Assembly: GCA_043812955.1 (NCBI GenBank)
Contig: JBDRLN010000064.1
Span: forward strand, 326 to 64,325
DNA: 64,000 nt
DNA from: Candidatus Omnitrophota bacterium
Lineage (GTDB): Bacteria; Omnitrophota; Gorgyraeia; Gygaellales; Profunditerraquicolaceae
Direction of reading: 5' to 3'
Shown here: positions 7,201 to 61,405 of the stretch, in pieces
Numbering within the stretch: position 1 is the first letter of the stretch
Layout: the number at the start of each line of letters is the position of its first letter
Program-made: the position numbers and the translations under genes
Notes under the pieces: generated by a model
Database searches by the model: none
Told to the model about the DNA's origin: nothing
The model's input: the letters and a program-made list of their open reading frames with translations, nothing else

Positions 7201-7457
7201 CCCAGCAAGGAGACTGATTCCCAGGCTTTATTCGCCGGAAGGAATTCTAATATAGCGTGGTCGCGGTTTTTGACTCCGAAACTAATAATTGCCTGGCCGC
7301 GGTTAACATAGAAGAGCCACATTGGTATGCCGTATTCTCCGGCAATGCCCGGGAAAAAGCTGGCAAACGGCTTGGCATAGTTGTAATTTTCAATAATAAA
7401 TTCGTCTTTATCGTTTAAATAATATTTCGGTTTTTTATTTTTAAAATTTTTTGTCAT
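4221..7457 (-). CDS. large (1078 aa) cytoplasmic hypothetical protein, possibly a glycoside hydrolase/phosphorylase-like multidomain enzyme
   Basis: Long uninterrupted ORF with good RBS (AAGGGAG) before its ATG; no TM or signal peptide; weak resemblance to (alpha/alpha)6 glycosidase/phosphorylase architecture only. Confidence 0.6.
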   Translation of the reverse strand: MTKNFKNKKPKYYLNDKDEFIIENYNYAKPFASFFPGIAGEYGIPMWLFYVNRGQAIISFGVKNRDHAILEFLPANKAWESVSLLGFRTFVKILSSKDNIFYEPFHNGFTNIDFDLNTRMSITSHDLNIQEENTTLGLKTEVEYFNIPQDSYAGLVRIVTIKNTGKKTRKIQLLDGVPKIVPYGIYNLFLKKLSRTVEAWMKVENLENHVPFFKVDVDPIDRPQVIHIKEGNFFLGFHFDKNNHSKIIKPVVDPQCIFGPVSDFSCPYHFLGNKIFRYPKNQITQNKTPCAFLDLDFELPPNSQKTYYSIIGNMRNLKILNSSLSRITKAGYLDLKKKQNKETIENLQNDISTRSSSREFDLYAKQTYLDNIMRGGYPVSFKSKLHKTIFYLYSRKHGDLERDYNKYELDPTYFSQGNGNYRDINQNRRCDNWFNPEVTDENITMFLNLIQLDGFNPLVVKGALFRLTNPEQFFLVLETLIQGKITPETAEFFSKSFTPGEVIIFFEEKIIKLKVKPDEFINILLSHCQKSQEASFHEGFWTDHWAYNLDLIENYLAIYPEKLKELAFEKKDFTFYDYFTFIKPRCQKYLLLNGLPKQLHSVGFDDSKKVMLENRVSSPRLARTDHGQGEVYKTTCAGKLICILANKLASLDPSGIGIEMEADKPNWFDSLNGLPALFGSSSCETFELKRLAIFLKESLKKNSIENVFLAEEIYNLLFGLGALIREYFTTDTNDKDFIFWDKTHTLKEEYRQKTNFGVSGKEKQVNRDELITILEDTLKKLDSGLNKAWDNKENIYYSYFINVVEEFVSLEPPFIKPTKFEQKKVPFFLEGPFHALRLMDKAQAQNMYKAILKSQLYDKKLKMYKVTSSLASMPEEIGRCRVFTPGWLENESIWLHMEYKYLLELLKCGLYEEFFQDFKNCLIPFQKPEVYGRSILENSSFLVSSVFPDKKLHGNGFVARLSGSTAEFLNIWLVMNIGKQPFVLNNKNELNLKFCPILPRWLFSKDRTYTFNFLSKITVIYHNPERKNTFGKAAALIKKIILSDQAGNTKEITSEIIPSPYAEQIRNRQIKKIDIYLE

Positions 7458-14063: not shown

Positions 14064-14522
14064 ATGCTTACCGATAATCAGGTACTTTTCCGTTTAGTCA
14101 TGTCTGTATTTTTAGGGGGTTTAATCGGTTTAGAGCGTCAGTTGCATCGCCGTAATGCGGGGCTGCGCACTCACATTCTGGTCAGTCTGGGCTCTTGTCT
14201 TATAATGTTGACATCCATGTATGTTTTTGATATATATAAAAATATGGCGGATATTGATCCCAGCCGGATTGCCGCGGGAGTTATTACCGGTATTGGTTTT
14301 TTAGGAGCAGGCACAATAATCAGGGACAGGGATGGAATAAAGGGTTTAACTACAGCTGCCAGCCTGTGGGTTGCTTCCGGGATCGGTTTAGCCGTAGGCT
14401 GTGGTTTTTATACAGCAGGTTTATTTACCGCTTTACTATCCTTGGTCGCGCTTATATTATTGCGTAAAATAGAAGCGACTATGCTGGGCAAAGAAGATCA
14501 ATCTACTAAGGGAGGTGTCTAA
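14064..14522 (+). CDS. mgtC: MgtC/SapB family membrane protein
   Basis: RLVMSVFLGGLIGLERQ MgtC signature; 4 TM helices. Confidence 0.8.
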   Translation: MLTDNQVLFRLVMSVFLGGLIGLERQLHRRNAGLRTHILVSLGSCLIMLTSMYVFDIYKNMADIDPSRIAAGVITGIGFLGAGTIIRDRDGIKGLTTAASLWVASGIGLAVGCGFYTAGLFTALLSLVALILLRKIEATMLGKEDQSTKGGV

Positions 14523-15028
14523 TGGCATTTAGTAAAAAGAAGGCGGAAGAAAAGGTGCTAGATGTTGATGCTGCCATGCAGGGAACTCTTAGTTTTAAAG
14601 ATCCGGTTAATCTTAAAATCAACGGTAAATTTGAAGGAAACTTGGAGACCAAGGGGAATTTAACTGTCGGCTCAACGGCCATAGTGATTGCCGATATTAA
14701 AGGGGATAATATAATTATTGCCGGTAAGGTTAAGGGGAAGGTGATCGCCCGAGAAAAATTAACCCTTTTATCCAGCGCGATAGTAGAAGGAGAGATATTC
14801 CCTACCAGGTTATGCGTTGCCGATGGAGCGATCTTAGAAGGAAAATGTTCGATGCTGGCTGATTTTTTAAATGATGAAGAGTTAGCCCGATATCTTGAGG
14901 TAGACTTAAATTCTATTAACGAGTGGGCGAATTCCGGAAAAATCCCGGCAATCAAAGACGGAAATGGCTTTAAGTTTGAAAGAAAAGCCGTAGATTCCTG
15001 GATCGCCGCCGGAAAAATCGGTAAATAA
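14522..15028 (+). CDS. bactofilin domain fused to a C-terminal HTH_17 (excisionase-family) DNA-binding domain
   Basis: Bactofilin beta-helix repeats (GNLTVGSTAIVIADIKGDNIIIAGKVKGKVIA...); C-terminus EELARYLEVDLNSINEWANSGKIPAIKDGNGFKF matches excisionase-type HTH. Confidence 0.65.
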   Translation: MAFSKKKAEEKVLDVDAAMQGTLSFKDPVNLKINGKFEGNLETKGNLTVGSTAIVIADIKGDNIIIAGKVKGKVIAREKLTLLSSAIVEGEIFPTRLCVADGAILEGKCSMLADFLNDEELARYLEVDLNSINEWANSGKIPAIKDGNGFKFERKAVDSWIAAGKIGK

Positions 15029-19724: not shown

Positions 19725-20912
19725 ATGCGGATAATCCAAAATTACAATGACGCGGATCTAAAGAAGATGCTCCAAGAGATAAAGGTGGATCCTTACGGTA
19801 ATAACATTATGCGACCAAAAGCAGATTTTTATCTGGTCAAAATCAATTCCCTGGCCTGTATTGCCGCGAATATTTTAAAACAAGAGATGCTCTCGTTAGG
19901 CGCTGATGCCGCGGTTGCCAAGGATTCTATAAGCGGGATGATTAAATCAACGGATTGCCTTTTAATGGCCAACTTCACCCAGCTTAAACTTTTAAATGAA
20001 AAATTAAAACATCAGCCATTCGGCCTGAATAAATTAGCCAAAGACCTAGCGTCAGCTTTAGAGAATTACCGCAAAGATAAATTCATTCTTGATCTGGGAA
20101 AATACAAATTAAACCTGTCCCAACGCACCTATATCATGGGTATAGTCAATATAACTACTGATTCATTTAGCGGTGATGGACTCTACCACAAAACTAAAGA
20201 TATAATTAAATATGCCGAAGATTTATCCAAACAAGGAGCAGATATAATTGATGTGGGTGGAGAATCCAGCCGGCCGGGAGCAAAAAGTATTCCGGTAAAA
20301 GAGGAGCTGCGCCGGGTGATTCCGGTAATAAAAAAACTGGTAAAAAAAATCGGTGTGCCGATATCTGTGGATACCTATAAACCTGAAGTCGCTGAACAGG
20401 CCCTGGATAACGGAGCAACAATAGTAAACGATATTACCGGGCTTAGCGATAAACTAATGCGCAAAGTTGCGGCAAGATACAAGGCTGCGGTTGTTATTAT
20501 GCATATGCAGGGAACTCCCCGGAGCATGCAGAAAGATCCTCATTACGAGTCTTTGATCGATGAGATCATTGATTATCTGGGTAAGGCGGTAGACAGGGCA
20601 ATGGAAGCTGGAATAGACAGAGATAAAATCATAATTGACCCGGGTATTGGCTTTGGAAAAACTTTAGATCATAACCTAGAGATATTAAAAAAGCTTAAAG
20701 AATTTAAAACCTTAGGCATGCCCATATTAGTTGGAACTTCCCGAAAATCATTTATCGGAAAAATCCTGAACGCCCAGCCTCAAGAAAGGCTGTTTGGCAC
20801 AATATCCAGCTGTGTCCTGGCCAGCTTAAACTCAGCGAATATCTTAAGGGTTCACGATGTCAAAGCTGTGCGCGACGCCTTAAAAATAAGCGATAAAATA
20901 ATAAAACAATGA
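19725..20912 (+). CDS. folP: dihydropteroate synthase with ~130-aa N-terminal extension of unknown function
   Basis: IMGIVNITTDSFSGDG pterin-binding signature starts at ~residue 135; the N-terminal part has no assignable domain. Confidence 0.85.
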   Translation: MRIIQNYNDADLKKMLQEIKVDPYGNNIMRPKADFYLVKINSLACIAANILKQEMLSLGADAAVAKDSISGMIKSTDCLLMANFTQLKLLNEKLKHQPFGLNKLAKDLASALENYRKDKFILDLGKYKLNLSQRTYIMGIVNITTDSFSGDGLYHKTKDIIKYAEDLSKQGADIIDVGGESSRPGAKSIPVKEELRRVIPVIKKLVKKIGVPISVDTYKPEVAEQALDNGATIVNDITGLSDKLMRKVAARYKAAVVIMHMQGTPRSMQKDPHYESLIDEIIDYLGKAVDRAMEAGIDRDKIIIDPGIGFGKTLDHNLEILKKLKEFKTLGMPILVGTSRKSFIGKILNAQPQERLFGTISSCVLASLNSANILRVHDVKAVRDALKISDKIIKQ

Positions 20913-21658
20913 CTTTGCAGATCTGGAAACCAATAGTCGAAATTACCATACTCTGGTTTATTATTTATCATGTTTTGCGTTTTTTTGAAGGAACCCGGGC
21001 TTTATATGTTTTACGGGGAATAATAACTCTCTTGGCCGTATTTTTCTTATTTCAAAAACTAGACCTCAAAGTGCTGGATTGGCTTCTGAGTAAACTTTTC
21101 GGAATCTCGGTTATCGCTATTTTAATCATCTTTCACCCTGAAATAAAGCAAGGCTTGGCAAAACTTGGACGCAGGCGTTTATTTATGGTCCAGCTTAAGG
21201 AAAAAGAACTTGATCAGATACTGCGGGAATTAGCTGACTCAGCCGAAAAACTCTGCAAAGAAAAAATAGGAGGCCTCATTGTCATAGAAAATAATGATCC
21301 TTTAAGCGCTTATATTGAAAATGGAGTACCTGTCGATGCCAAGATATCCTCGGACCTGATCCAGGCGATATTTACTCCTAATAACCCCCTGCATGATGGG
21401 GGTTTAATTATACAGGCAGGAAGGATAGCGGCCGCGGGATGTTTATTTCCACTGATCCAAAATCAGGAATTAAGCCGCATCTATGGCACAAGGCACCGGG
21501 CTGCTTTAGGATTAAGTGAAGAGACTGACGCGATAATCATCGTAATTTCGGAGGAACGCCGGGATATATCGCTAGTTTACCAATCTAAGCTGCATAAAGA
21601 CTTGGGCAAAGACGAATTATCATCTAAAATCAAAGAGATAATCAAACCCAAAAAATAA
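20909..21658 (+). CDS. cdaA: diadenylate cyclase CdaA (c-di-AMP synthase), membrane anchored
   Basis: 3 N-terminal TM helices; DAC domain motifs DGGLIIQ and TRHRAALGLSEETDA. Confidence 0.9.
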   Translation: MTLQIWKPIVEITILWFIIYHVLRFFEGTRALYVLRGIITLLAVFFLFQKLDLKVLDWLLSKLFGISVIAILIIFHPEIKQGLAKLGRRRLFMVQLKEKELDQILRELADSAEKLCKEKIGGLIVIENNDPLSAYIENGVPVDAKISSDLIQAIFTPNNPLHDGGLIIQAGRIAAAGCLFPLIQNQELSRIYGTRHRAALGLSEETDAIIIVISEERRDISLVYQSKLHKDLGKDELSSKIKEIIKPKK

Positions 21659-23653: not shown

Positions 23654-23726
23654 GCCGGCTTAGCTCAGTTGGTAGAGCGTCTGTTTTGTAAACAGATGGT
23701 CGGGGGTTCAATTCCTCTAGCCGGCT
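23654..23726 (+). tRNA. tRNA-Thr (anticodon UGU)
   Basis: Cloverleaf: acceptor GCCGGCT/AGCCGGC, anticodon loop TTTGTAA, T-loop TTCAATT. Confidence 0.85.
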
Positions 23727-23794
23727 TTATTAAGTTCATAGGTGATAGTTCATAGCTTAATAGTAAAATCTATAAACTACGAACAGTGAACTAC

Positions 23795-23888
23795 GAACTA
23801 AAATGGGCAGGTACCCAAGTGGCTAAAGGGGACAGACTGTAAATCTGTTGCACTTCGTGCTTCGGGGGTTCGAAACCCTCCCTGCCCA
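23795..23888 (+). tRNA. tRNA-Tyr (anticodon GUA) with long variable arm
   Basis: Acceptor GGGCAGG/CCTGCCC, anticodon loop CTGTAAA, long variable arm, T-loop TTCGAAA. Confidence 0.85.
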
Positions 23889-23968
23889 TTAAAAAATTTT
23901 ACCAAAAGGTGTAACGGGGCGTGGCCTCCGTTAAAAAGTATGGCGGATTCACCACGCAAGATGCAATA

Positions 23969-24043
23969 CGGGGCGTGGCTCAGTTTGGCTAGAGCGCTTG
24001 AATGGGGTTCAAGAGGTCACAGGTTCAAGTCCTGTCGCCCCGA
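23969..24043 (+). tRNA. tRNA-Pro (anticodon GGG) with C1:G72
   Basis: Acceptor CGGGGCG/CGCCCCG, anticodon loop ATGGGGT, T-arm ACAGG-TTCAAGT-CCTGT. Confidence 0.8.
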
Positions 24044-24260
24044 AATATTGACGAGGCACAGGTTTCCCGCTTTATGCAGAAGTTCTCAAGCGGGATTTCG
24101 CCACGATGAGTTAATAAGGTGGCTCATCAAGTCCTGTCGCCCCGAATAAATGAGGACAGTTTCCCGCCAGATAGATAAATTGCCTGCGGGATCCCGACTG
24201 TTCAAGAGTGGGTGTCGGGTCAAGTCTGTCCGCCCCGAAATATTGACGAGGCACAGGTTG
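24026..24260 (+). repeat. ~2.5 degenerate tandem units (~95-100 bp); each is a copy of the tRNA-Pro 3' end (CAAGTCCTGTCGCCCCGA) plus a TTTCCCGC-loop-GCGGGAT hairpin
   Basis: 39-bp near-identical direct repeats at 24026-24064 and 24218-24260; a partial unit at 24124-24147; TCCCGC/GCGGGA hairpins at ~24063-24100 and ~24168-24205. Confidence 0.75.
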
Positions 24261-24350: not shown

Positions 24351-24704
24351 ATGGAAGAGCAGACCTATACAGATACTGAACGCAGGCAATTTGTAAGGAT
24401 GGATTATACGACTCCCTTGGCATATAAGGTATGCAAACAAGAAACCCTATCTAAAATATTAGAGGGATACACGGTAGATATAAGCCAGGCAGGATTACTT
24501 TGCAACTTAAAAGACTGGGTTAACATCGATGATGTTATGTGGCTCTCCTTTGAAAGAAGCGTATTGCGTATATTCGTAGAGCTGGAGAAAAGAAGCCTTA
24601 TTTATCAAAACGGCGTAATTGGCAAAGTGGTAAGAATACTGAATAACGATAATGGTTCTTATAATGTAGGCGTACAATTTCTGACCCGGGAAGAAAAAAT
24701 ATAG
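24351..24704 (+). CDS. single-domain PilZ (c-di-GMP receptor) protein
   Basis: PilZ motifs RRQFVR (RxxxR) and DISQAGL (DxSxxG); its stop lies 1 nt before the gpsA start. Confidence 0.7.
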   Translation: MEEQTYTDTERRQFVRMDYTTPLAYKVCKQETLSKILEGYTVDISQAGLLCNLKDWVNIDDVMWLSFERSVLRIFVELEKRSLIYQNGVIGKVVRILNNDNGSYNVGVQFLTREEKI

Positions 24705-24705
24705 T

Positions 24706-25704
24706 ATGAAAAAAATCAATATTGCTGTTCTAGGTGATGGGGGGTGGGGAACTACCTTGAGCCTCCTGCTTAATAAAACTGGTTTTGAAGTCACATTATG
24801 GAGCGTTTTTAAAGATTATGCCGCTTATTTAGATAAAAAAAGAGTAAATACCAGATTTCTGCCTAAGATCAAAATACCCCATAATATAACCATTACTGCA
24901 GATTTAAAAGAAGCCCTAACAGGCAAAAATTTAATCATTCTGGCAGTGCCATCGCAATATATGCGCCAGGTCTTAAAAAAGATTAAAAAAATTGAATACC
25001 CGAAGAAGGCAACTTATCTGAGCGTTACTAAGGGCATAGAAATTAAAACGCTGGATACGATGACCGATGTTATCCGGAAAGAATTGGGAGATGTAAAATT
25101 GGCGGTATTATCCGGGCCAACCATCGCCCATGAAGTAGCCTATGGCGTGCCGACTACAGCGGTAGTAGCTGCGCCTGACCATAAACTTTGTAAATATCTG
25201 CAGGATATTTTTATGTATGAAAGTTTCAGGGTTTATACCTCATCGGATACTATAGGGGTAGAATTGGGAGGCAGCGTAAAAAATGTTATTGCTATTGCCT
25301 GTGGCATATCTGACGGCCTGGGATTCGGCACAAATACTAAAGCCGCGCTTTTATCCCGGGGGCTGGCGGAAATCTCCCGATTAGGGATCGCAATGGGAGC
25401 GGATCCTAAAACTTTTAGCGGCGTAAGCGGGCTAGGTGACTTAGTAACAACCTGTATCAGCCTTTACAGCCGTAATAGGTACGTAGGCGAACAGATCGGC
25501 AAGGGGAAAACGCTAAATGAAATAAAGAAAACAATGCGGATGGTAGCCGAAGGCATACCCACATCTAAATCTACTTACGCGTTAAGTAAAAAATATAAAG
25601 TGGATATGCCAATAATAAGGGAAGTTTACCAGGTGCTTTATAAGAATAAATCTCCTAAAGATGCGGTTAGATATCTGATGACCCGCCAGAAGAAAGCAGA
25701 GTAA
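24706..25704 (+). CDS. gpsA: NAD(P)H-dependent glycerol-3-phosphate dehydrogenase
   Basis: N-terminus INIAVLGDGGWGTTL; GpsA fold. Confidence 0.9.
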   Translation: MKKINIAVLGDGGWGTTLSLLLNKTGFEVTLWSVFKDYAAYLDKKRVNTRFLPKIKIPHNITITADLKEALTGKNLIILAVPSQYMRQVLKKIKKIEYPKKATYLSVTKGIEIKTLDTMTDVIRKELGDVKLAVLSGPTIAHEVAYGVPTTAVVAAPDHKLCKYLQDIFMYESFRVYTSSDTIGVELGGSVKNVIAIACGISDGLGFGTNTKAALLSRGLAEISRLGIAMGADPKTFSGVSGLGDLVTTCISLYSRNRYVGEQIGKGKTLNEIKKTMRMVAEGIPTSKSTYALSKKYKVDMPIIREVYQVLYKNKSPKDAVRYLMTRQKKAE

Positions 25705-25780
25705 AAAAGGATAGGACAATAAACTTCTTTTTTAGTTTAGGATAATGAGATTGTGGATTGGTAAAGCTATACGCTAATAT

Positions 25781-25851
25781 GCGGGCATAGCACAGAGGAA
25801 GTGCAGTAGCCTTCCAAGCTACCTACACGGGTTCGAGTCCCGTTGCCCGCT
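25781..25851 (+). tRNA. tRNA-Gly (anticodon UCC)
   Basis: Acceptor GCGGGCA/TGCCCGC, anticodon loop CTTCCAA, T-arm CGGG-TTCGAGT-CCCG. Confidence 0.8.
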
Positions 25852-25972
25852 ATAAGTAGCCTTCTCCCGCTCAGAGAATATAGCAGAGAGGCGGGATCCC
25901 GCTATGATATAATATTAATAGTGGCGGGACAAGCGTAACATATATGTGAGTTCGATTCTCATCGCCCGCTAT
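25852..25972 (+). repeat. degenerate duplicate of the tRNA-Gly 3' end (GTGAGTTCGATTCTCATCGCCCGCTAT) preceded by a TCCCGC-loop-GCGGGA hairpin
   Basis: TTCGAGTCCCGTTGCCCGCTAT (tRNA) vs TTCGATTCTCATCGCCCGCTAT ~100 bp downstream; same arrangement as at the tRNA-Pro locus. Confidence 0.55.
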
Positions 25973-26000
25973 TGATAATATTCAAAAAGGGATTGCGAAT

Positions 26001-26357
26001 ATGAACAAAGAAAGAAGAAAATCCATACGCATCAAAAAACAGATAGACGCCCAATATCAACATATTATTAACGATAAAACAGTCTGGATTACAGTATTGG
26101 TCAATGATATCAGCGAAGCCGGGGCCTGCGTACTAATAGATAGATTCCCCCTGATAGGAGAAGAAATTATATTACGCTTAAGAACACCTTTAAATCCTGG
26201 AGAATGGCTTCAGGTCAATACCAAAGTCATAGACGTAGATAAATATATGACTAACACGTATTTTGCTAGATTGCATTTTATAGATCTGCAGGTCGAATAT
26301 AAAGAACGAATTAGAGAATATATTGATTTTTATCTGAAACGGGAGAAGCGCTTATGA
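26001..26357 (+). CDS. single-domain PilZ protein
   Basis: RRKSIR (RxxxR) and DISEAGA (DxSxxG); overlaps the hom start by 4 nt. Confidence 0.7.
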   Translation: MNKERRKSIRIKKQIDAQYQHIINDKTVWITVLVNDISEAGACVLIDRFPLIGEEIILRLRTPLNPGEWLQVNTKVIDVDKYMTNTYFARLHFIDLQVEYKERIREYIDFYLKREKRL

Positions 26358-27649
26358 AAAAAATAAACGTAGGAATAATTGGTTTCGGAAATGTCGGTTC
26401 GGGGGTTATCAGGATCTTGCAGGAGAGATCCGGATTACTATCCCAAAAGGTAGGTCTGGGCATCCAGGTCAAGAAAATCTGCGATAAGGATATTTTATCT
26501 AAACGCAATGTCAATATTAACAAAGGACTTTTGACTAAAAATCCTCTGGATATTATAAATAACCCTCAGATAGATATAGTGGTGGAATTAATGGGAGGTA
26601 TACATCCGGCCAAGGAGCTTATCTTAGGCGCTTTAAAAAAAGGGAAGAACATCGTCACTGCTAACAAAGCTTTATTGGCCCTTTATGGTAAAGAATTATT
26701 TGCTACTGCCTTTGACTGCGGAAAAAATATTTATTTTGAGGCAGCGGTCGGAGCAGGTATTCCGATCATTAAATCGCTCAAAGAAGGATTAGTGGCTAAC
26801 AAATTCAATAGTATCTACGGCATAGTCAATGGGACCTCTAATTTTATACTCTCTCAGATGTATAATAATAATTGTTCCTTTAATGAAGCCTTAAAAGAAG
26901 CTAAGGCCAGGGGATTTGCTGAAAAAGACCCGACCCTGGATATTGAAGGAATTGATTCAGCCCATAAGTTAATAATACTTACCTACCTTTGCTTTGGAAG
27001 GCTGATCTCGCTTGATGATATTTATATTGAAGGAGTTTCTCGTATATCCCTGGCTGATATTAATTATGCCAAGGAATTAAACCTCAAGGTAAAATTATTA
27101 GCCATTGCTAAAAAAGAGGGCGACAGCCTGGATGTCCGGGTCCACCCGACCCTGATACCTAATGAACACATGCTCTCTTCTGTAGATGAAGTCAATAACG
27201 CTATTTATGTATCTTCGGACCTGGCCGGCAATCTTTTATTCTATGGCCCGGGGGCCGGTCAATCATCAGCGGCCTCGGCCGTAGTCTCGGATATAATTGA
27301 TTTAACCAATGATATAAAAGCCGGTTTATTCCGGTCGACCTTGAATATTATCACTGATAAGTCAATAAAAAAATTGTCCAAAATAGATGAGATACAAAGC
27401 CGCTACTATATCCGGATGCTAGTTTTAGATAAGCCTGGCGTACTGGCTAAGCTATCCGGGGTATTATCTAAATTCGGAATCAGTATCGCTTCGGTAACCC
27501 AGAAAGAGAGAAGAAAAGCCCAGAGCGTGCCCATTGTTATGATTATCCACGAAGCTAAAGAAAAGAATTTAAGAGAGGCTTTACGGATTATTGATCGCCT
27601 GGATATTGTGAAGGAAAAATCCGTGGCTATCCGGATGGAGAGAGTATGA
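26354..27649 (+). CDS. hom: homoserine dehydrogenase (with C-terminal ACT domain)
   Basis: N-terminus [15 protein letters not shown]; Hom catalytic and ACT regions. Confidence 0.9.
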
Positions 27650-28773
27650 TTTCCGATAAAGCATATAAAGGCTTGATAATTAAGTATCGACAATATCTGC
27701 CGGTAACCAAAAAAACGCCGGTGATTACCCTTAATGAGGGAAATACTCCTCTGATTTATGCCAATTACCTGAGCAAGATGATTGGAAAGGGTTTTGAAGT
27801 TTATTTAAAATACGAAGGATTGAATCCCACTGGTTCATTTAAAGACCGGGGCATGACCCTGGCAATATCAAAAGCCTGCGAAGAAGGCTCAAAAGCGGTG
27901 ATCTGCGCTTCAACCGGTAATACCTCAGCATCCGCAGCTGCCTACGCTGCCAGGGCAGGAATCAAATGTATCGTGCTTATACCCAGCGGAGCAATTGCTT
28001 TAGGTAAATTAAGCCAAGCCTTGATCCACGGAGCTACTGTTTTAGCTGTAGACGGTAATTTTGACGATGCGCTAAATCTGGTTAAGGAGATTACAGCTAA
28101 ATACCCCATTACCTTAGTAAATTCACTTAATCCTTATCGTATTGAAGGGCAAAAAACCGCCAGTTTTGAAATCTGCGATTTCTTGACCGATGCACCAAAT
28201 TTTCAGATTATGCCCGTAGGAAATGCCGGAAATATTACTGCCTACTGGAAAGGTTATAAGGAGTATAAAAAAATAGGTAAATCCGTTAAATTACCCAGAA
28301 TGCTGGGTTTCCAGGCTGAAGGTTCGGCCCCCATTGTAAGAGGCCATCCGATTAAAAATCCTGAAACTATTGCCACGGCGATAAGGATAGGCAATCCTGC
28401 CAGCTGGAAACAGGCAGAACAAGCCCGCGACGAATCCAACGGTCTTATTGACCTGGTCTCGGATAAAGAAATAATCCAAGCCTATAAACTATTATCGATA
28501 AAAGAAGGGGTGTTTGTAGAACCAGCATCAGCAGCTTCTATTGCCGGATTATTAAAATTAGCTAAAAAGGGCTATTTTGAGCGGTTGTCGGTTAGCGGTT
28601 GTCGGTTAGCGTCCGCTCACCGTTCACCGCGAACCGCGAACCGAAAGCTTCGCATTGTATGTATACTCACCGGACATGGCCTGAAAGATCCGGACAGGGC
28701 AATTAAAACTATTAAAGCGCCAAAGATCATAAAACCAAATATGAAGGCGATATTGAAAGAAATTGGATACTAG
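27646..28773 (+). CDS. thrC: threonine synthase carrying a ~20-aa in-frame insertion encoded by a GC-rich palindromic element
   Basis: PLP site SFKDRGM; the C-terminus [44 protein letters not shown] is ~20 aa longer than canonical ThrC (KKG...IVCxLTGHG). Confidence 0.9.
28579..28650. repeat. GC-rich repetitive/palindromic insert inside thrC: tandem CGGTTGTCGGTTAG x2, then CACCGTTCACCGCGAACCGCGAACCG
   Basis: Sharp local GC rise; direct repeats with inverted symmetry (GAGCGG...CCGCTC; CGGTT.../...AACCG); reading frame preserved. Confidence 0.7.
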
Positions 28774-29515
28774 CAAAACTAAAAACTCAAAGCGCAAGAC
28801 TCAAAGTTTAAAACTTAAAGCTAAAAACTTTAAGCGCAAAACTCAAAGCTTAAAGGGAAAAAAGGTATTAATTACTGCCGGACCGACTTGGGCAGCCATA
28901 GATGATGTAAGGGTAATCTCTAATACTGCCACAGGAGAAACCGGAAGGCTTTTAGCTGAGAAATTAACAACTAAAGGCGCTAAGGTTGCTCTTCTAATTA
29001 ACGCGGAAAACAGATGCTGGCTAAATAAAAAAATTAAAATTCTGACCTTTAGGTTCTTTGACCAGCTCAAAAAACATATTGTCAAAGAAGTGTCATCCGG
29101 AAGATACGATATTTTTATACATTCAGCCGCAGTTTCTGATTATAGGCCGGCTAAATCAGTTAAAGGAAAAATCAATTCGGGTAAATTTAAGCTCCGCCTG
29201 GATTTAGTCCCTACCCCTAAAATCATTAACCGGATAAAGAAAATTGATAGTTCTTTGTTCTTAGTTGGTTTCAAATACGAGCCTGGTAATGATAAAAAAA
29301 CTTTGATTCAGAAGGCAAAAAAACTAATGTCTAAGTCAAACGCGGATATTATTGTTGCCAATACATCAGGCAAAAAAGGTTACCAAGCGTATATCATAAA
29401 CAGGGATAAGATATTCTGTGGTCCGGTCTATAATAAATCGGTAATGATCAATAGCCTTATACAGGCGATAAACAGGTCATTTGGTTTAAAGAAAACGTTA
29501 CAAAAAAGCAATTAA
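28763..29515 (+). CDS. coaB: phosphopantothenate--cysteine ligase (stand-alone CoaB domain, no CoaC) with Lys-rich repetitive N-terminus
   Basis: [30 protein letters not shown] matches the CoaB core; N-terminal KRKTQSLK repeats are encoded by tandem DNA repeats. Confidence 0.7.
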
Positions 29516-29532
29516 GGAATATAATATAAACC

Positions 29533-30729
29533 ATGAAATACATAGTTTTAGTCGCGGATGGAATGGCGGATTACCCGATTGCAGAATTGGGTAATCGTAC
29601 GCCTTTGGAAGCTAGCCGCACTCCTAATATGGATTATATAGCTAGGCAAGGAAGGCTGGGCCGGGTAAAAACTATACCCGAGAATATGATTCCAGCTTCA
29701 GATGTGGCTAATATTTCTATACTGGGATACGATCCTAAAATATATTATACCGGCAGAGGGCCCCTAGAGGCGGCTAATTTAGGCATTGAAATGGAAGGCG
29801 ATGATGTGGCTTTTCGCTGCAACTTAGTTACTATCGCTAATGATAAAATGATAGATTACAGCTCTGGGCATATAAGTTCTAAAGAGGCCAGCGTTTTGAT
29901 TAAGGCAGTCAACCATAATTTAGGCAGCGATAAATTCAAATTCTATCCCGGGATAAGCTACAGGCATTTATTGCTGGTAAAAAAAAGCGCTGATGAGCAA
30001 CTGGAAAAAATAAATTGCGTCGCCCCCCATGATATCTTTGAACAGAATATTGTTAAATTTCTGCCTAAAGGAAAAAATAGCGATAACTTAATCAAGTTAA
30101 TGCGTGATTCCCAAAAAGTCCTGGAGGCCCATGAGATAAACCAAGTGAGAATTGACCTTAAGGAGAATCCGGCAAATATGATTTGGTTGTGGGGCCAGGG
30201 GAAAAAGCCGGATTTACCTAAATTTACCGATAAGTACGGGCTCAGCGGTAGCGTAATATCTGCGGTTGATCTGATCAAAGGTCTGGGTAAGGTTATCGGA
30301 CTCAACGTAATTAATGTTGCCGGCGCTACCGGATACTATGATACCGACTATAAAGGTAAGGCTAATGCCGCGATAAGGTCCCTGGAGAACAATGATTTTG
30401 TTTTTGTCCATGTGGAGGCACCGGATGAGGCCGGGCATAACGGAGATTTGAGGGAAAAGATAACCGCTATTGAAAGATTTGACCAGTTAGTGGTAGGGAC
30501 AATATTAGAGGCATTTAAACGTAAAAAGAATTTTAAGATCATGGTTTTGCCTGACCACGCGACACCGGTATCTTTAAAAACGCATACCTCTGATGTAATA
30601 TGTTTCGGCATTTTCGGGAAAGGCATCATCGGCAGGGGTTTTTTGAATTACAGCGAAAAGGAGGCGGCGAAATCCGACCTCTATTTTGATAAAGGCCACG
30701 AATTAATGGATTATTTTATTAAATCCTAA
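29533..30729 (+). CDS. apgM: cofactor-independent phosphoglycerate mutase, archaeal-type (ApgM family)
   Basis: N-terminus MKYIVLVADGMADYPI; metalloenzyme domain. Confidence 0.85.
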   Translation: MKYIVLVADGMADYPIAELGNRTPLEASRTPNMDYIARQGRLGRVKTIPENMIPASDVANISILGYDPKIYYTGRGPLEAANLGIEMEGDDVAFRCNLVTIANDKMIDYSSGHISSKEASVLIKAVNHNLGSDKFKFYPGISYRHLLLVKKSADEQLEKINCVAPHDIFEQNIVKFLPKGKNSDNLIKLMRDSQKVLEAHEINQVRIDLKENPANMIWLWGQGKKPDLPKFTDKYGLSGSVISAVDLIKGLGKVIGLNVINVAGATGYYDTDYKGKANAAIRSLENNDFVFVHVEAPDEAGHNGDLREKITAIERFDQLVVGTILEAFKRKKNFKIMVLPDHATPVSLKTHTSDVICFGIFGKGIIGRGFLNYSEKEAAKSDLYFDKGHELMDYFIKS

Positions 30730-30739
30730 AAAAGCAGAG

Positions 30740-31057
30740 GTGATCATGAATGAGAAAAGAAAATTTTACAGGTCGGCGGTTCCGCTGGATAAACTGAAGT
30801 GCAGGATAATCGAGCCCGTAAGCATAGCTAACGATACTGAATTTTCTATTCTTAATATAAGCGTAATGGGCATAGCCTTTGAAAGCGATGAAAAAATAGA
30901 CCACGACGCCATCAGGCTAGCGATCAAATTTCCTTTTACTTCTTATGAAGAAGCGGCCTATGTCTGGGGCAGGGTAGTATATTCGAATAAAATGCTGAAT
31001 AATGATAAACACCTTATCGGTATAGCCTTTATAAGAAAAAAACAGGGTCATAAATAA
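30740..31057 (+). CDS. single-domain PilZ protein
   Basis: RKFYR (RxxxR) and NISVMGI (NxSxxG); its stop overlaps the lysC start codon. Confidence 0.65.
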   Translation: MIMNEKRKFYRSAVPLDKLKCRIIEPVSIANDTEFSILNISVMGIAFESDEKIDHDAIRLAIKFPFTSYEEAAYVWGRVVYSNKMLNNDKHLIGIAFIRKKQGHK

Positions 31058-32271
31058 TGAAAAAACTGATTGTGCAGAAATTTGGCGGTTCTTCGGTGGC
31101 GAATGTCGAACGAATTCAGAATGTAGCTAAAAGGGTCGTTGGCTATAAAAAAGAAGGCCATGATTTAGTGGTGGTAGTATCAGCCTTAGGAGACACTACC
31201 GATGAACTGATCGAACTGGCAAATCAGATCAGCAATGATCCTCCGGAACGGGAGATGGATATGCTTTTATCAACTGGAGAACAGATATCCGTTGCCCTGC
31301 TGGCTATGGCAATCCATAAGCTTGGCTTTGAGGCAATTTCTTTTACCGGAGCGCAAGTCGGGATAATTACCGATAAAAACCACACCCAGGCCAGGATTAT
31401 CAAAATAAATGCCGATAGAATCCGCCGAGCCTTAAAAGAAGGCAAGATCGTTATTGTAGCCGGGTTTCAGGGAATAACCATCGATGAAAATATCACTACC
31501 CTGGGAAGAGGCGGGTCTGATCTTACTGCCGTGGCCTTGGCCAAAGAACTAAACGCTAACGAATGCGAGATATATACCGATGTAGAGGGTATTTATACTA
31601 CGGATCCCCGGATCGAACCCAAGGCAAAAAAGATTAAAGCCATTACTTTTGACGAAATGCTGGAGATGGCTTCTTTGGGCGCCCAGGTAATGCAGCCCCG
31701 TTCCATAGAAGTAGCCAAGAAATTCAACGTCCCGATACACGTACGTTCGTCATTATCATTAAAACGCGGAACTATGATCATCAAGGAGGTAAAAATAATG
31801 GAAGATGCGCTTATCACCGGCGTAACCCTGAATAAAAATGAGACCAAGATTACTGTCTGCGATGTTCCGGATAAGCCCGGAGTGGCAGCCAGAATATTTA
31901 AAGAACTCTCTGATAGCGGCATTAGCGTAGACATGATCGTTCAGAATGTCTCTCATACCCGCAAAACCGATATCTCGTTTACCGTGTCTAAGGCAAATTC
32001 TGCTAAAACAATACGCAAGGCTAAAAAAACATCCCAGGCGATCGGTGCAGGCGTTGTACTGGAAGACGCAGATATTGCCAGGGTCTCGGTAGTCGGCGTA
32101 GGCATGAAATCACACCACGGAGTTGCCGCGACCATGTTCGGGACTTTAGCCGAAAATAAAATCAACATTGAAATGATCTCTACATCCGATATAAGTATCT
32201 CCTGCATCATCCAGAAGAAATTCGCGGAATTAGCAGTTAGAGAAATACATAAAAAGTTTGGCCTGGGATAA
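31057..32271 (+). CDS. lysC: aspartate kinase (with ACT domains)
   Basis: N-terminus QKFGGSSVAN; two C-terminal ACT repeats. Confidence 0.9.
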   Translation: MKKLIVQKFGGSSVANVERIQNVAKRVVGYKKEGHDLVVVVSALGDTTDELIELANQISNDPPEREMDMLLSTGEQISVALLAMAIHKLGFEAISFTGAQVGIITDKNHTQARIIKINADRIRRALKEGKIVIVAGFQGITIDENITTLGRGGSDLTAVALAKELNANECEIYTDVEGIYTTDPRIEPKAKKIKAITFDEMLEMASLGAQVMQPRSIEVAKKFNVPIHVRSSLSLKRGTMIIKEVKIMEDALITGVTLNKNETKITVCDVPDKPGVAARIFKELSDSGISVDMIVQNVSHTRKTDISFTVSKANSAKTIRKAKKTSQAIGAGVVLEDADIARVSVVGVGMKSHHGVAATMFGTLAENKINIEMISTSDISISCIIQKKFAELAVREIHKKFGLG

Positions 32272-33862
32272 TAATTTAAGCCGGAGGCATGAAATGCGCA
32301 AGATTCAAATATATGATACGACCTTAAGAGACGGATCCCAAGGCGAAGGTATTTCTTATTCGGTCAGCGATAAAGTGCGTATCGCTGAAGAATTAGACCT
32401 TTTGGGAGTTGATTATATTGAAGGCGGCTGGCCAGGTTCAAACCCGAAAGACATGGAATTCTTTTTAAAGATGTCCCAGAAGACCCTGAAAAATGCCCAA
32501 TTAACCGCTTTTAGTATGACTCGCAGGCCGAATATCAGAGCATCCCAGGACACGAATATAAAAGATTTGATCAAATCCCGGGTCAAGATCATAACCATTG
32601 TCGGTAAAACTTGGGATCTGCACGTCAGCGACGTTTTAAAAGTAACCTTGGATGAAAACCTGGAAATGATCAAAGATACTGTTTCTTTTTTAGTGTCTGC
32701 CGGCCTTACTGTTTTTTATGATGCTGAACATTTTTTTGACGCCTATAAGGCTAATAAGGAATACGCTTTAAAAACTATTGCCTTCTGCCAAGAGGCAGGG
32801 GCTAAAGCGGTTGTGCTCTGTGATACTAACGGTGGCTCGCTTCCTTCGGAGATTTCGCAGGTGATCAATCAAATCCTACCCTTAGTGAAAGTTCCCTTAG
32901 GTATTCACTGCCATAATGATTGCGGAATGGCTATAGCTAATTCAATCGCGGCAGTTGAATCCGGGGCTGATATGGTCCAGGGAACTATTAACGGTTATGG
33001 TGAACGCTGCGGTAACGCTGATCTGATCCCGGTTATCGCTAATCTCAGAATTAAGTTAGGACTTAAGGCGTTGGGCGAAGACAAATTAAAAGAATTAACC
33101 AAGGTCTCCCATTTTGTCAGTGAAATAAGCAATATGAAACAAAGGGATGACCAGCCTTTTGTGGGAGCCTCGGCATTTGCCCACAAAGGCGGAATGCACA
33201 TCAATGCGGTAATAAAGAACTCTCTGGCCTACGAGCATTGCGAGCCAGGGATCGTCGGTAACCATAGGAGATTCTTGATATCGGAGCTGGGAGGAAAAAC
33301 CGGGATAATGCTCAGGGCTAAAGCCATGGAATTTGACTTAAGCAAAGAGAATCCTCAGACCCAGAGAATACTTAAATTGATCCAGAACCTGGAACATCAA
33401 GGGTATCATTTTGAAGCGGCTGAGGCATCTTTTGAATTATTAATGAAGAGGGCGCTTAAGAAGTATAAAAAATTCTTTGAATTGCAGGGATTCAGGATTG
33501 TGATAGAGAAGATATCCAATAAAAAGATAACCTCGGAAGCGATCATAAAACTAAAGGTAAAGGGCAAAATGGAACATACCGCCGCTGAAGGGGATGGCCC
33601 GGTCAATGCCCTGGATAATGCCGTAAGAAAAGCCTTAAAAAATTTCTATCCCACATTGTCTAAAATGCATCTGGCGGACTTTAAGGTCCGGGTATTGGAT
33701 GAACAAGCCGGAACCGCGGCTAAAGTACGGGTATTAATTCAGTCTCAGGATGAAAAGGATGATTGGAATACCATCGGCGTGCATGAAAATATTATCGAGG
33801 CATCCTGGCAGGCGATGGTCGACAGTATCGAATATAAATTGCTTAAAGATAAAGTATCTTAA
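32258..33862 (+). CDS. cimA: citramalate synthase / 2-isopropylmalate synthase family (CimA-like, 534 aa)
   Basis: IYDTTLRDGSQGEGIS HMGL-like TIM barrel plus C-terminal LeuA dimerisation region. Confidence 0.8.
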   Translation: MAWDNNLSRRHEMRKIQIYDTTLRDGSQGEGISYSVSDKVRIAEELDLLGVDYIEGGWPGSNPKDMEFFLKMSQKTLKNAQLTAFSMTRRPNIRASQDTNIKDLIKSRVKIITIVGKTWDLHVSDVLKVTLDENLEMIKDTVSFLVSAGLTVFYDAEHFFDAYKANKEYALKTIAFCQEAGAKAVVLCDTNGGSLPSEISQVINQILPLVKVPLGIHCHNDCGMAIANSIAAVESGADMVQGTINGYGERCGNADLIPVIANLRIKLGLKALGEDKLKELTKVSHFVSEISNMKQRDDQPFVGASAFAHKGGMHINAVIKNSLAYEHCEPGIVGNHRRFLISELGGKTGIMLRAKAMEFDLSKENPQTQRILKLIQNLEHQGYHFEAAEASFELLMKRALKKYKKFFELQGFRIVIEKISNKKITSEAIIKLKVKGKMEHTAAEGDGPVNALDNAVRKALKNFYPTLSKMHLADFKVRVLDEQAGTAAKVRVLIQSQDEKDDWNTIGVHENIIEASWQAMVDSIEYKLLKDKVS

Positions 33863-59873: not shown

Positions 59874-60242
59874 ATGGCAAAGATACTTATTGTTGACGAC
59901 GAGAATGACGTGCTGGAGTTCGCGGCAAATTTCTTCCGCAAGCGCAAGATTGGAGTGGCTGTGGCTACCAGCGGAGAAGAAGCCTTAAGTAAATTAGAGG
60001 CTGAAGCCCCGGATTTAATATTGCTGGACATTCAAATGGGGGGGATCAATGGGATTGAAACCCTGGAACGCCTGCGCCAGATGAATGGTAACATTAAGGT
60101 CATCATGGTTACCGGCAAGGCCCCTATGGCGGACGGGGCGCTGGAAAAATGCCTGAATTTAGGCGCGCTGGCTTATATCCACAAACCACTTAAGTTGGAT
60201 GAACTTGAAAGGGTAGTCCTTAAAACTTTAGGCGCAAAATGA
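59874..60242 (+). CDS. stand-alone response-regulator receiver protein
   Basis: ILIVDDE ... LILLDIQMGGINGIE. Confidence 0.85.
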   Translation: MAKILIVDDENDVLEFAANFFRKRKIGVAVATSGEEALSKLEAEAPDLILLDIQMGGINGIETLERLRQMNGNIKVIMVTGKAPMADGALEKCLNLGALAYIHKPLKLDELERVVLKTLGAK

Positions 60243-61405
60243 ATATCAATTACAAAAAAGAGCTAGAGCTGGCGGCAAAGAATATGATCATGGTCCACGA
60301 ACCCGACTTACTGATCAAGATGATCGCCCGCACTATTGTCCAGAAAGTCGGAATTAAACACGCCGGCATATTACTTCATAATGAAGAAGAGAAGAGTTAT
60401 ATCTTAAACGTCTCCCACGGAGCCAAAGGCATAAAAATCCCGGCGGGTTTTGCCCGCATAGATTATGACAACGCCCTTATCCGGATATTCCAGGAAAACA
60501 AGAAAAATCCCTTCTTGGAAAACGGATCATTTATTTACCATAATGTAAAAAAAGTAATAGCTAATCACAGCTATCCTCCTGAATTCAAAGAACTCTTGAG
60601 TCAGTCATTATATCAAATGGAAATTTTTGATTCCATAGCCTGCATTCCCAGTTATTTTCGGGATGACCTTTTAGGCGTATTGCTTCTGGGAGCAAAAACT
60701 GATAACCAGAATTTTGAACAGGAAGAATTGGATTTTTTTACCGCCCTGGCTTCGGATGTAGCTATGGCTATTCGCAACGCCCAGCTGTTTAAGGAATTGG
60801 AAGGCGAACTGCAAAAAAAACGCCGTTTGTTTATTAATACTACCGTGGCCTTAGCCGCTGCAGTTGACGCCAAAGACCACTATACCCACGGCCATATTAA
60901 CCGGGTAACCGCTATATGCCTAGAGATAGCCAAAGAGCTGAATCAAAAAAATAAAAAAACTTTTGATGAGAAGTTTATGGAAAACTTACATATCGCCAGC
61001 CTCCTGCACGATATCGGAAAGATCGGCATCCCGGAATATATCCTGAATAAAGAAGGCCCATTAAACGAAGAGGAGAGGCAGAAGATAAATGAACACCCGA
61101 TGATCGGAGTTACCATCCTTCAGCCGATAAGTGAACTAGACGAGGCAATAATGGGAGTAAAACACCACCATGAAAGATATGATGGCCTGGGGTATCCCAG
61201 CGGTTTAAAAAAAGAGGAGATCCCTATGATTGCCGCAATAATATCTGTAGCTGACACCTATGACGCCATGACTTCTAATAGGCCATACCGTAAAGCCCTG
61301 GATAAAGATCAAGCCCTGAATGAGATCAAAAACCAGATCGGAAAACAATTTCATCCGTCAATAGCCGCTGTATTCGTCGAACTTTTTAATGAAGGCAAGA
61401 TATAA
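60239..61405 (+). CDS. GAF-domain HD-GYP phosphodiesterase (c-di-GMP hydrolase family)
   Basis: HDIGKIGIP (HD) and HHERYDGLGYP (GYP) motifs; N-terminal GAF-like region. Confidence 0.8.
   Translation: MNINYKKELELAAKNMIMVHEPDLLIKMIARTIVQKVGIKHAGILLHNEEEKSYILNVSHGAKGIKIPAGFARIDYDNALIRIFQENKKNPFLENGSFIYHNVKKVIANHSYPPEFKELLSQSLYQMEIFDSIACIPSYFRDDLLGVLLLGAKTDNQNFEQEELDFFTALASDVAMAIRNAQLFKELEGELQKKRRLFINTTVALAAAVDAKDHYTHGHINRVTAICLEIAKELNQKNKKTFDEKFMENLHIASLLHDIGKIGIPEYILNKEGPLNEEERQKINEHPMIGVTILQPISELDEAIMGVKHHHERYDGLGYPSGLKKEEIPMIAAIISVADTYDAMTSNRPYRKALDKDQALNEIKNQIGKQFHPSIAAVFVELFNEGKI

Follow-up and report, generated by a model that had tools for sequence, protein, structure and literature searches.

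Most of the known outputs of cyclic diguanosine monophosphate (c-di-GMP) lie in motility, adhesion, exopolysaccharide, secretion and transcription. Single-domain PilZ adaptors which bind an enzyme and modulate it have been described, namely MapZ, the partner of CheR1 in Pseudomonas aeruginosa (PMC6370697), and N5MapZ, the partner of HemK in Xanthomonas citri (PMC11250160). Here, a stretch of 64,000 nucleotides (nt) from a Candidatus Omnitrophota bacterium is analyzed (contig JBDRLN010000064.1 of assembly GCA_043812955.1, positions 326 to 64,325; the whole stretch is referred to as the window), in which the genes for three small PilZ proteins, PilZ1, PilZ2 and PilZ3, directly precede those for glycerol-3-phosphate dehydrogenase (gpsA), homoserine dehydrogenase (hom) and aspartate kinase (lysC), respectively. 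Like MapZ and N5MapZ, they are stand-alone PilZ proteins of ~100–130 amino acids (aa) with the motifs RxxxR and (D/N)xSxxG, and c-di-GMP-dependent binding of an enzyme in trans is also the mechanism proposed here; the class of partner is different, however, since it would consist of core biosynthetic enzymes.

A small signal-binding protein that docks on an enzyme of the amino-acid-kinase fold is known from PII and N-acetylglutamate kinase (NAGK), where docking modulates both flux and feedback inhibition. The NAGK-like amino-acid-kinase family (Pfam AA_kinase) also holds LysC, but the likeness is one of analogy only; the PII fold is not that of PilZ, ligand and enzyme are different as well, and no homology is implied. 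In the cellulose synthase BcsA (PDB 4p00) a PilZ domain is fused in cis to the enzyme, as is PilZ1 to GpsA in two relatives of the organism (see below). There, PilZ is C-terminal and belongs to a membrane exopolysaccharide synthase, whereas here it stands on the N-terminal side of a dehydrogenase which is soluble, uses NAD(P)H and takes part in central lipid metabolism; fused proteins are the exception here (2 of the 120 best matches to the fusion query). Within the Omnitrophota, small pilZ homologs are found at conserved positions beside giant genes (bioRxiv 10.1101/2023.11.21.568195); they come from the same phylum and are of the same small, single-domain kind, but they follow giant genes related to surface or secretion functions, which carry GGDEF domains, while those described here precede gpsA, hom and lysC and fall into subfamilies of their own. 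No report that links PilZ proteins or c-di-GMP receptors with gpsA, hom, lysC or IlvH was found in open-access papers, and for that literature the statement of an earlier note on this DNA, that the pairing had not been described, holds.

The reading pursued here is that the three open reading frames (ORFs) encode single-domain PilZ adaptors, each of which would be co-expressed with the next enzyme downstream and would bind it, so that the activity of the enzyme would follow the c-di-GMP level of the cell. The target of PilZ1 would be GpsA, which converts dihydroxyacetone phosphate to glycerol-3-phosphate, the phospholipid backbone; PilZ2 (in most relatives its paralogue PilZ_H) would act on Hom, and PilZ3 on LysC, the latter two enzymes standing at the entry and at a branch of the aspartate family. 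In this way envelope and amino acid biosynthesis might be tied to the messenger in charge of lifestyle switches. We put the probability that the PilZ adaptors bind and modulate their adjacent enzymes under control of c-di-GMP at roughly 0.45; what we infer comprises the binding, the contact, the catalytic effect and its direction alike. If true, direct control of central biosynthetic enzymes by PilZ adaptors would extend the reach of c-di-GMP into core metabolism and offer a point of access to growth control in a phylum that is uncultured and possibly depends on hosts; control of Hom and LysC would reach threonine, methionine, lysine and diaminopimelate. The far-reaching scenario that, in a large clade of ultra-small Omnitrophota, c-di-GMP throttles core anabolism via PilZ adaptors docking on GpsA, Hom and LysC together is rather unlikely in our view; a lifestyle messenger would then act post-translationally as a valve on growth, via the synthesis of membrane, cell wall and amino acids, and the class of PilZ target would be new. 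The hypothesis is easy to test, as it concerns small, soluble proteins and enzymes for which standard assays exist, and a natural PilZ-GpsA fusion provides a ready-made construct; further, more than 1,000 natural PilZ1 homologs exist which can be used for complex prediction from paired alignments.

Conservation beside gpsA and hom

A survey of related loci was anchored on Hom, with one genome per GTDB species, and comprised 78 loci, ~68 from Omnitrophota (Hom 55–89% identical) and 8 from outgroups; they were annotated by BLAST, an iterated local PilZ hidden Markov model (HMM) and clustering, and frequencies were counted among the loci with upstream sequence. Four PilZ subfamilies were resolved: PilZ1-type, PilZ_H, PilZ2-type and PilZ3-type. 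In 38 of 48 loci, a PilZ1-type gene is found no more than 30 nt from gpsA, an overlap of 14 nt being the commonest state; in the remaining ones it is further away (2), fused to gpsA (1) or absent (7). Directly upstream of hom (within 161 nt) some PilZ gene is present in 65 of the 66 Omnitrophota loci, that of the window lineage included, and in none of the 8 outgroups. The gene found upstream of hom is PilZ_H in 64/66 Omnitrophota loci, 48 times at a distance of at most 30 nt, 15 times at 31–150 nt and once at 161 nt. When the stability of a junction is expressed as the percentage of loci in which the gap is at most 170 nt, PilZ1 to gpsA reaches 97%, PilZ_H to hom and hom to thrC 100% each, and thrC to coaB 95%; the corresponding values are 68% for coaB to the apgM-like gene, 48% for the apgM-like gene to lysC, 40% for gpsA to PilZ_H and 0% for nnrD to PilZ1. 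The PilZ-to-enzyme junctions are, thus, among those almost never interrupted, while neighboring junctions are often broken.

In one relative (L049, 8037-9437) PilZ1 and GpsA are spanned by a single ORF of 466 aa, with no ATG, GTG or TTG at the usual gpsA start. The 120 best matches to this ORF consist of two PilZ+GpsA proteins and 118 unfused GpsA proteins of 329–354 aa. One of the two, P0125 (466 aa), is identical to the L049 product and present in an ENA assembly, at NCBI and in two Logan assemblies of separate runs; the other, P0126 (463 aa), stems from a second species (GCA_030018895.1) and differs in the linker. The fusion loci (L049:8037-9437, L086:2415-3806 and L087-L089) represent two Omnitrophota species, and four independent assemblies contain the fusion. 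P0125 and P0126 are each other's closest relatives, the PilZ parts being 82% identical to each other versus at most 71% to any stand-alone PilZ1, and the GpsA parts 79% versus at most 77% to unfused GpsA, which points to one ancestral fusion kept through ~20% divergence. As a Rosetta-stone hint, the fusion suggests a functional link between PilZ1 and GpsA; taken together with the conserved adjacency, it leads us to consider such a link slightly favored.

For Hom, an additional indication comes from a crude mirror-tree test of rate covariation with 31 species. The covariation of PilZ_H with Hom is specific (partial r = 0.47, p = 0.005; ≤0 with ThrC, CoaB and GpsA); the specificity of the test is, however, low in this setting, because enzyme-enzyme pairs correlate, too.

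The window itself departs from the common arrangement at hom. PilZ2-type genes, present in ~18 species, usually lie upstream of PilZ_H, and one to three PilZ genes are located between gpsA and hom; loci with the usual order of a PilZ2-type gene and PilZ_H are, for example, L009:9260-9955 and L014:4297-5033. In leave-one-out HMM comparisons, PilZ2 of the window scores 103.5 bits against the PilZ2-type and 39.1 bits against the PilZ_H model, and its lineage (the window, its closest relative L001, and L007) is therefore one without the near-universal hom-adjacent paralogue; there, a PilZ2-type gene overlaps hom by 4 nt instead. Judged from these scores, the situation amounts to the replacement of one paralogue by another at a conserved position. 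The pairing of PilZ2 with hom, as it had been claimed, has to be reworded accordingly: PilZ-hom pairing is near-universal, but in relatives it is carried by PilZ_H, which is missing here. Near-universal adjacency, specific covariation and the second paralogue standing in position where PilZ_H is missing give a functional link between PilZ and Hom a chance that we place somewhat short of even.

The three proteins as PilZ family members

Membership was judged by Pfam PF07238 with its curated gathering cut-off of 22.5 bits. PilZ1 (39.7 bits) and PilZ2 (42.0 bits) are above it, as are PilZ2-type and PilZ_H orthologs (32.8–49.3 bits), and PilZ3 (20.4 bits, E = 6.9e-4) is slightly under it, its orthologs giving 22.4 bits, 18.9 bits, no hit and 26.8 bits. 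In hhalign, the profile of the PilZ3 orthologs matches that of the PilZ2-type with 98.1% probability (E = 1e-13), the motif regions being in register, and that of the PilZ1-type with 92.8%, which makes PilZ3, by profile comparison, a divergent member of the PilZ superfamily. The confirmation by HMM that the earlier note had called for is thereby obtained for PilZ1 and PilZ2, while for PilZ3 homology is given by hhalign only. All three ORFs are present on the plus strand where that note had placed them, and both motifs are intact in each product: RRQFVR ... DISQAG in PilZ1, RRKSIR ... DISEAG in PilZ2 and KRKFYR ... NISVMG in PilZ3. PilZ is the sole Pfam domain in each of these proteins of 105–118 aa, and the 120 best homologs of PilZ1 (129–176 aa) are likewise PilZ-only. 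For PilZ2, a look-up of the exact sequence gave no record, but an identical NCBI protein (P0001), filed under Candidatus Omnitrophota, was among the homologs retrieved.

The arginine pair of RxxxR is invariant in the alignments (R12 and R16 in PilZ1, R6 and R10 in the PilZ2-type, R7 and R11 in the PilZ3-type), and in 31 orthologs of PilZ1 so are R12, R16, S45 and G48. When (D/N)xSxxG is required 15–40 residues after RxxxR, the full pair is retained in 40/42 PilZ1-type, 21/23 PilZ2-type, 52/67 PilZ_H and 4/8 PilZ3-type proteins. This pattern bears on the possibility that some or all of the PilZ-fold proteins, and in particular those of the PilZ3-type, have lost the ability to sense c-di-GMP and serve as constitutive small subunits or stabilizers of their enzymes. 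A PilZ protein that does not bind the ligand is known from Xanthomonas (XAC1133), and in PilZ3-type orthologs the motif serine is mostly replaced by asparagine (NINxGG); moreover, PilZ3 is under the Pfam cut-off and 15 of the 67 PilZ_H proteins fail the strict motif expression. Such ligand-independent subunits are nevertheless improbable, given the invariance of RxxxR and of the motif serine and glycine in PilZ1, the motif pair in nearly all PilZ2-type proteins and the presence of both motifs in all three proteins of the window.

The three small ORFs are, by the measure of substitution patterns, real genes under purifying selection: the ratio of nonsynonymous to synonymous differences (pN/pS) with the closest relative is 0.11 for PilZ1, 0.31 for PilZ2 and 0.19 for PilZ3, in the same range as for neighboring genes (0.07–0.34). 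That they are spurious ORFs was rejected on the grounds of these ratios and of their conservation across ~65 species. The ATG at 30746 (103 aa) is a more likely start of PilZ3 than the GTG at 30740, because a GAGGTG Shine-Dalgarno sequence is located 5 nt upstream of the former and the respective methionine is invariant in orthologs. PilZ1 of the window and of L001 ends in "...TREEKI" and is devoid of the ~20-aa C-terminal tail of most orthologs (consensus NLTxIYPKxxF...); in species with the tail, it is this part of PilZ1 that runs 14 nt into gpsA. No further PilZ-like ORF was detected in the window with the local PilZ HMM, and in ~1.15 Mb of related loci a single match to it lies outside the three positions. 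Among the best non-orthologous matches to the PilZ2/PilZ3 profile are many proteins of 220–265 aa with two PilZ matches (e.g., P0246-P0250); these tandem proteins may correspond to fused pairs of PilZ2-type and PilZ_H genes.

Spacing, synteny and competing explanations

The junctions had been described as a 1-nt spacer at gpsA, a 4-nt overlap at hom and a shared start codon at lysC, and this is borne out by the junction sequences: TAG, one base and ATG for PilZ1 and gpsA, ATGA for PilZ2 and hom, and TAATG (1-nt overlap) for PilZ3 and lysC. The conclusion drawn from them, that each PilZ gene is translationally coupled to its enzyme, carries little weight, as gaps of at most 4 nt are found at 28 of the 53 same-strand gene pairs of the window and tight or overlapping junctions are therefore the default spacing of a compact genome. 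The junctions also raise the question whether the small ORFs are leader cistrons acting in cis, so that their translation would set the rate of the downstream enzyme by coupling and the protein would be secondary. Stop and start codons do overlap or abut at all three junctions, and PilZ1 overlaps gpsA by 14 nt in most species; on the other hand, tight spacing is genome-wide, gpsA, hom and lysC each have a purine-rich, Shine-Dalgarno-like sequence 5′ of their own start, and 16 of 64 PilZ_H-to-hom gaps (31–161 nt) are too far for coupling. The strong conservation of the proteins (pN/pS 0.05–0.31, with many invariant residues, those of the ligand-binding motifs among them) would, in addition, be unneeded for a mere leader, and we regard this explanation as very improbable.

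More serious is the possibility that the PilZ proteins do serve as receptors of c-di-GMP, with targets elsewhere (for example pili, secretion or the giant surface proteins of Omnitrophota), and have hitch-hiked with housekeeping operons; such operons guarantee steady co-transcription, and the adjacency would be kept by inherited synteny and by the cost of disrupting overlaps. The whole block from cdaA to valS is syntenic in the clade, and therefore adjacency alone, being partly inherited, is weak evidence. The coaB-like gene is as stably embedded in the thr operon, between thrC and the apgM-family gene, as the PilZ genes are beside their enzymes, and since it has no obvious functional link to thrC, stable adjacency needs none. 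Overlapping junctions are the norm, as stated above, one to three PilZ copies stand between gpsA and hom, depending on the locus, and small pilZ genes recur beside the unrelated giant genes of Omnitrophota (bioRxiv 10.1101/2023.11.21.568195). Further, the covariation of PilZ1 with GpsA is not significant (partial r = 0.12, p = 0.15). What hitch-hiking accounts for less well is the PilZ1-GpsA fusion and its persistence through ~20% sequence divergence, the confinement of PilZ ORFs to three positions while the flanking junctions were repeatedly rearranged, the presence of another PilZ gene tightly overlapping hom in the lineage that is without PilZ_H, and the specific covariation of PilZ_H with Hom. 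On this evidence we hold hitch-hiking to be unlikely; if true, the locus would be a tidy case of lineage-specific conservation of gene order with little mechanistic content.

Besides common spacing, synteny, the embedding of coaB, the replaced serine in PilZ3-type proteins and the missing covariation of PilZ1 with GpsA, several further observations speak against enzyme-directed PilZ adaptors. Seven species have no PilZ1 upstream of gpsA, and PilZ2 of the window is not the paralogue that is conserved at hom. PilZ3-type genes abut lysC in only 6 of 46 loci, all in one small lineage; conservation of the pairing in relatives, which the earlier note had proposed to check, is consequently found for gpsA (38/48) and for a PilZ gene at hom (65/66), and for lysC in that small lineage only. 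The observation made in the note is thereby confirmed, and its interpretation is supported in part, to a different degree for each pair. Given this restricted lineage and the degenerate motif of the orthologs, a link between PilZ3 and LysC is doubtful and, of the three, the one we trust least. No fusion of PilZ with Hom or LysC is present in the best 150 of 206 profile matches, which are single or tandem PilZ proteins only, or among ~66 local loci. In an AlphaFold2 model of the natural fusion, the PilZ and the GpsA Rossmann domains are confident, but the C-terminal domain of GpsA is poor and the predicted template modeling score is 0.53, a quality too low for any reading of how the domains dock. 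No GGDEF gene was seen by Pfam among the window proteins scanned. The window does encode, as had been noted, the c-di-AMP (cyclic diadenosine monophosphate) synthase CdaA and an HD-GYP protein, the latter a candidate phosphodiesterase with the motifs HD at residue 257, HHE at 310 and GYP at 318, which shows the potential for c-di-GMP turnover in this genome.

Organization of the locus and its surroundings

The genes of the window are almost all on the plus strand and densely packed. The local order is tRNA-Thr, tRNA-Tyr, tRNA-Pro, PilZ1, gpsA, tRNA-Gly, PilZ2 and hom, followed by thrC, coaB, an apgM-family gene, PilZ3, lysC, a LeuA/CimA-family gene and valS (Table 1). The three enzymes downstream of the PilZ genes all pass their NCBIfam cut-offs; the apgM-family protein passes those of both the cofactor-independent phosphoglycerate mutases and the "proposed homoserine kinase" family (TIGR02535). 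For the LeuA/CimA-family synthase, the HMGL-like, HCS_D2 and LeuA_dimer domains were identified by Pfam in the L001 ortholog.

Table 1. Location of the PilZ genes, their neighbors and the second-messenger genes in the window, with the assignments on which the names are based
Feature	Position	Strand	Assignment and remarks
cdaA, c-di-AMP synthase	20909..21658	+	Pfam DAC and CdaA_N; in the same conserved syntenic block
tRNA-Thr(tgt), tRNA-Tyr(gta), tRNA-Pro(ggg) cluster	23654..24043	+	ARAGORN, Rfam, repeat search; immediately 5′ of PilZ1
PilZ1, single-domain PilZ, 117 aa	24351..24704	+	PilZ1-type family; abuts gpsA across the clade
gpsA, NAD(P)H-dependent glycerol-3-phosphate dehydrogenase	24706..25704	+	Pfam NAD_Gly3P_dh_N and _C; NF000942, 428.6 bits (cut-off 257)
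tRNA-Gly(tcc)	25781..25851	+	Rfam, ARAGORN; between gpsA and PilZ2
PilZ2, single-domain PilZ, 118 aa	26001..26357	+	PilZ2-type subfamily
hom, homoserine dehydrogenase with C-terminal ACT domain	26354..27649	+	Pfam; NCBIfam NF004976, 518.7 bits (cut-off 205)
thrC, threonine synthase	27646..28773	+	TIGR00260, 335 bits
coaB-like, phosphopantothenate-cysteine ligase domain protein	28763..29515	+	Pfam DFP, 142.9 bits; inside the thr operon
apgM-family protein	29533..30729	+	NF003242, 571.2 bits (cut-off 426); TIGR02535, 546.9 bits (cut-off 446.3)
PilZ3, divergent PilZ-like, 105 aa from GTG	30740..31057	+	Pfam below cut-off, and hhalign
lysC, monofunctional aspartate kinase with two ACT domains	31057..32271	+	NF005155, 595.1 bits (cut-off 346)
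LeuA/CimA-family synthase	32258..33862	+	Pfam of the L001 ortholog; synteny; conserved 3′ neighbor of lysC
GAF/HD-GYP protein, candidate c-di-GMP phosphodiesterase	60239..61405	+	Pfam HD_5, 124.1 bits; downstream of a response-regulator gene

A riboswitch or leader RNA 5′ of PilZ1 and PilZ2 was considered and rejected, as only tRNAs were found there by Rfam (at gathering thresholds) and ARAGORN; a scan for promoter and terminator consensus sequences gave counts not above those in shuffled sequence. Both gaps contain partial copies of tRNA 3′-ends. After tRNA-Pro and directly upstream of PilZ1, the repeat search found two of them (24124-24166 and 24217-24259, sharing 60% and 88% identity with the reference copy), which comprise the T-arm and acceptor end plus ~20 nt of 3′ sequence, and a partial copy of the 3′-end of tRNA-Gly is located ~100 nt past that gene, directly upstream of PilZ2 (25950-25972). 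They resemble attachment-site duplications that integrating elements leave behind, or decayed tRNA copies. In other species, a tRNA is also found directly 5′ of PilZ2-type genes, and over-extended ORFs there start with translated tRNA sequence.

The junction between the apgM-like gene and lysC occurs in three states: direct abutment (~22 loci), an intervening gene for the 529-aa carbon-starvation transporter CstA (17 loci; e.g., L019:14184-15773), or a PilZ3-type gene (7 species, including that of the window). In thrC, at ~28585-28644, an in-frame insertion of ~18 aa is apparent from the alignment with the ThrC of L001; it consists of short GC-rich repeats, both tandem and inverted (GCGGTTGTCGGTTA twice ... 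CGCGAACCGCGAACCG), and may be a small repeat element tolerated within coding sequence. The longest coaB ORF begins 27 codons 5′ of the start of the alignment with L001, and the additional N-terminus is rich in lysine and contains KRKTQSLK twice. Farther away, the sole large minus-strand gene of the window (4221-7457) encodes a protein of 1078 aa with no Pfam match at E ≤ 0.001, and the gene at 14522-15028 encodes one of 168 aa with the unusual combination of a bactofilin domain and, at the C-terminus, the DNA-binding domain HTH_17.

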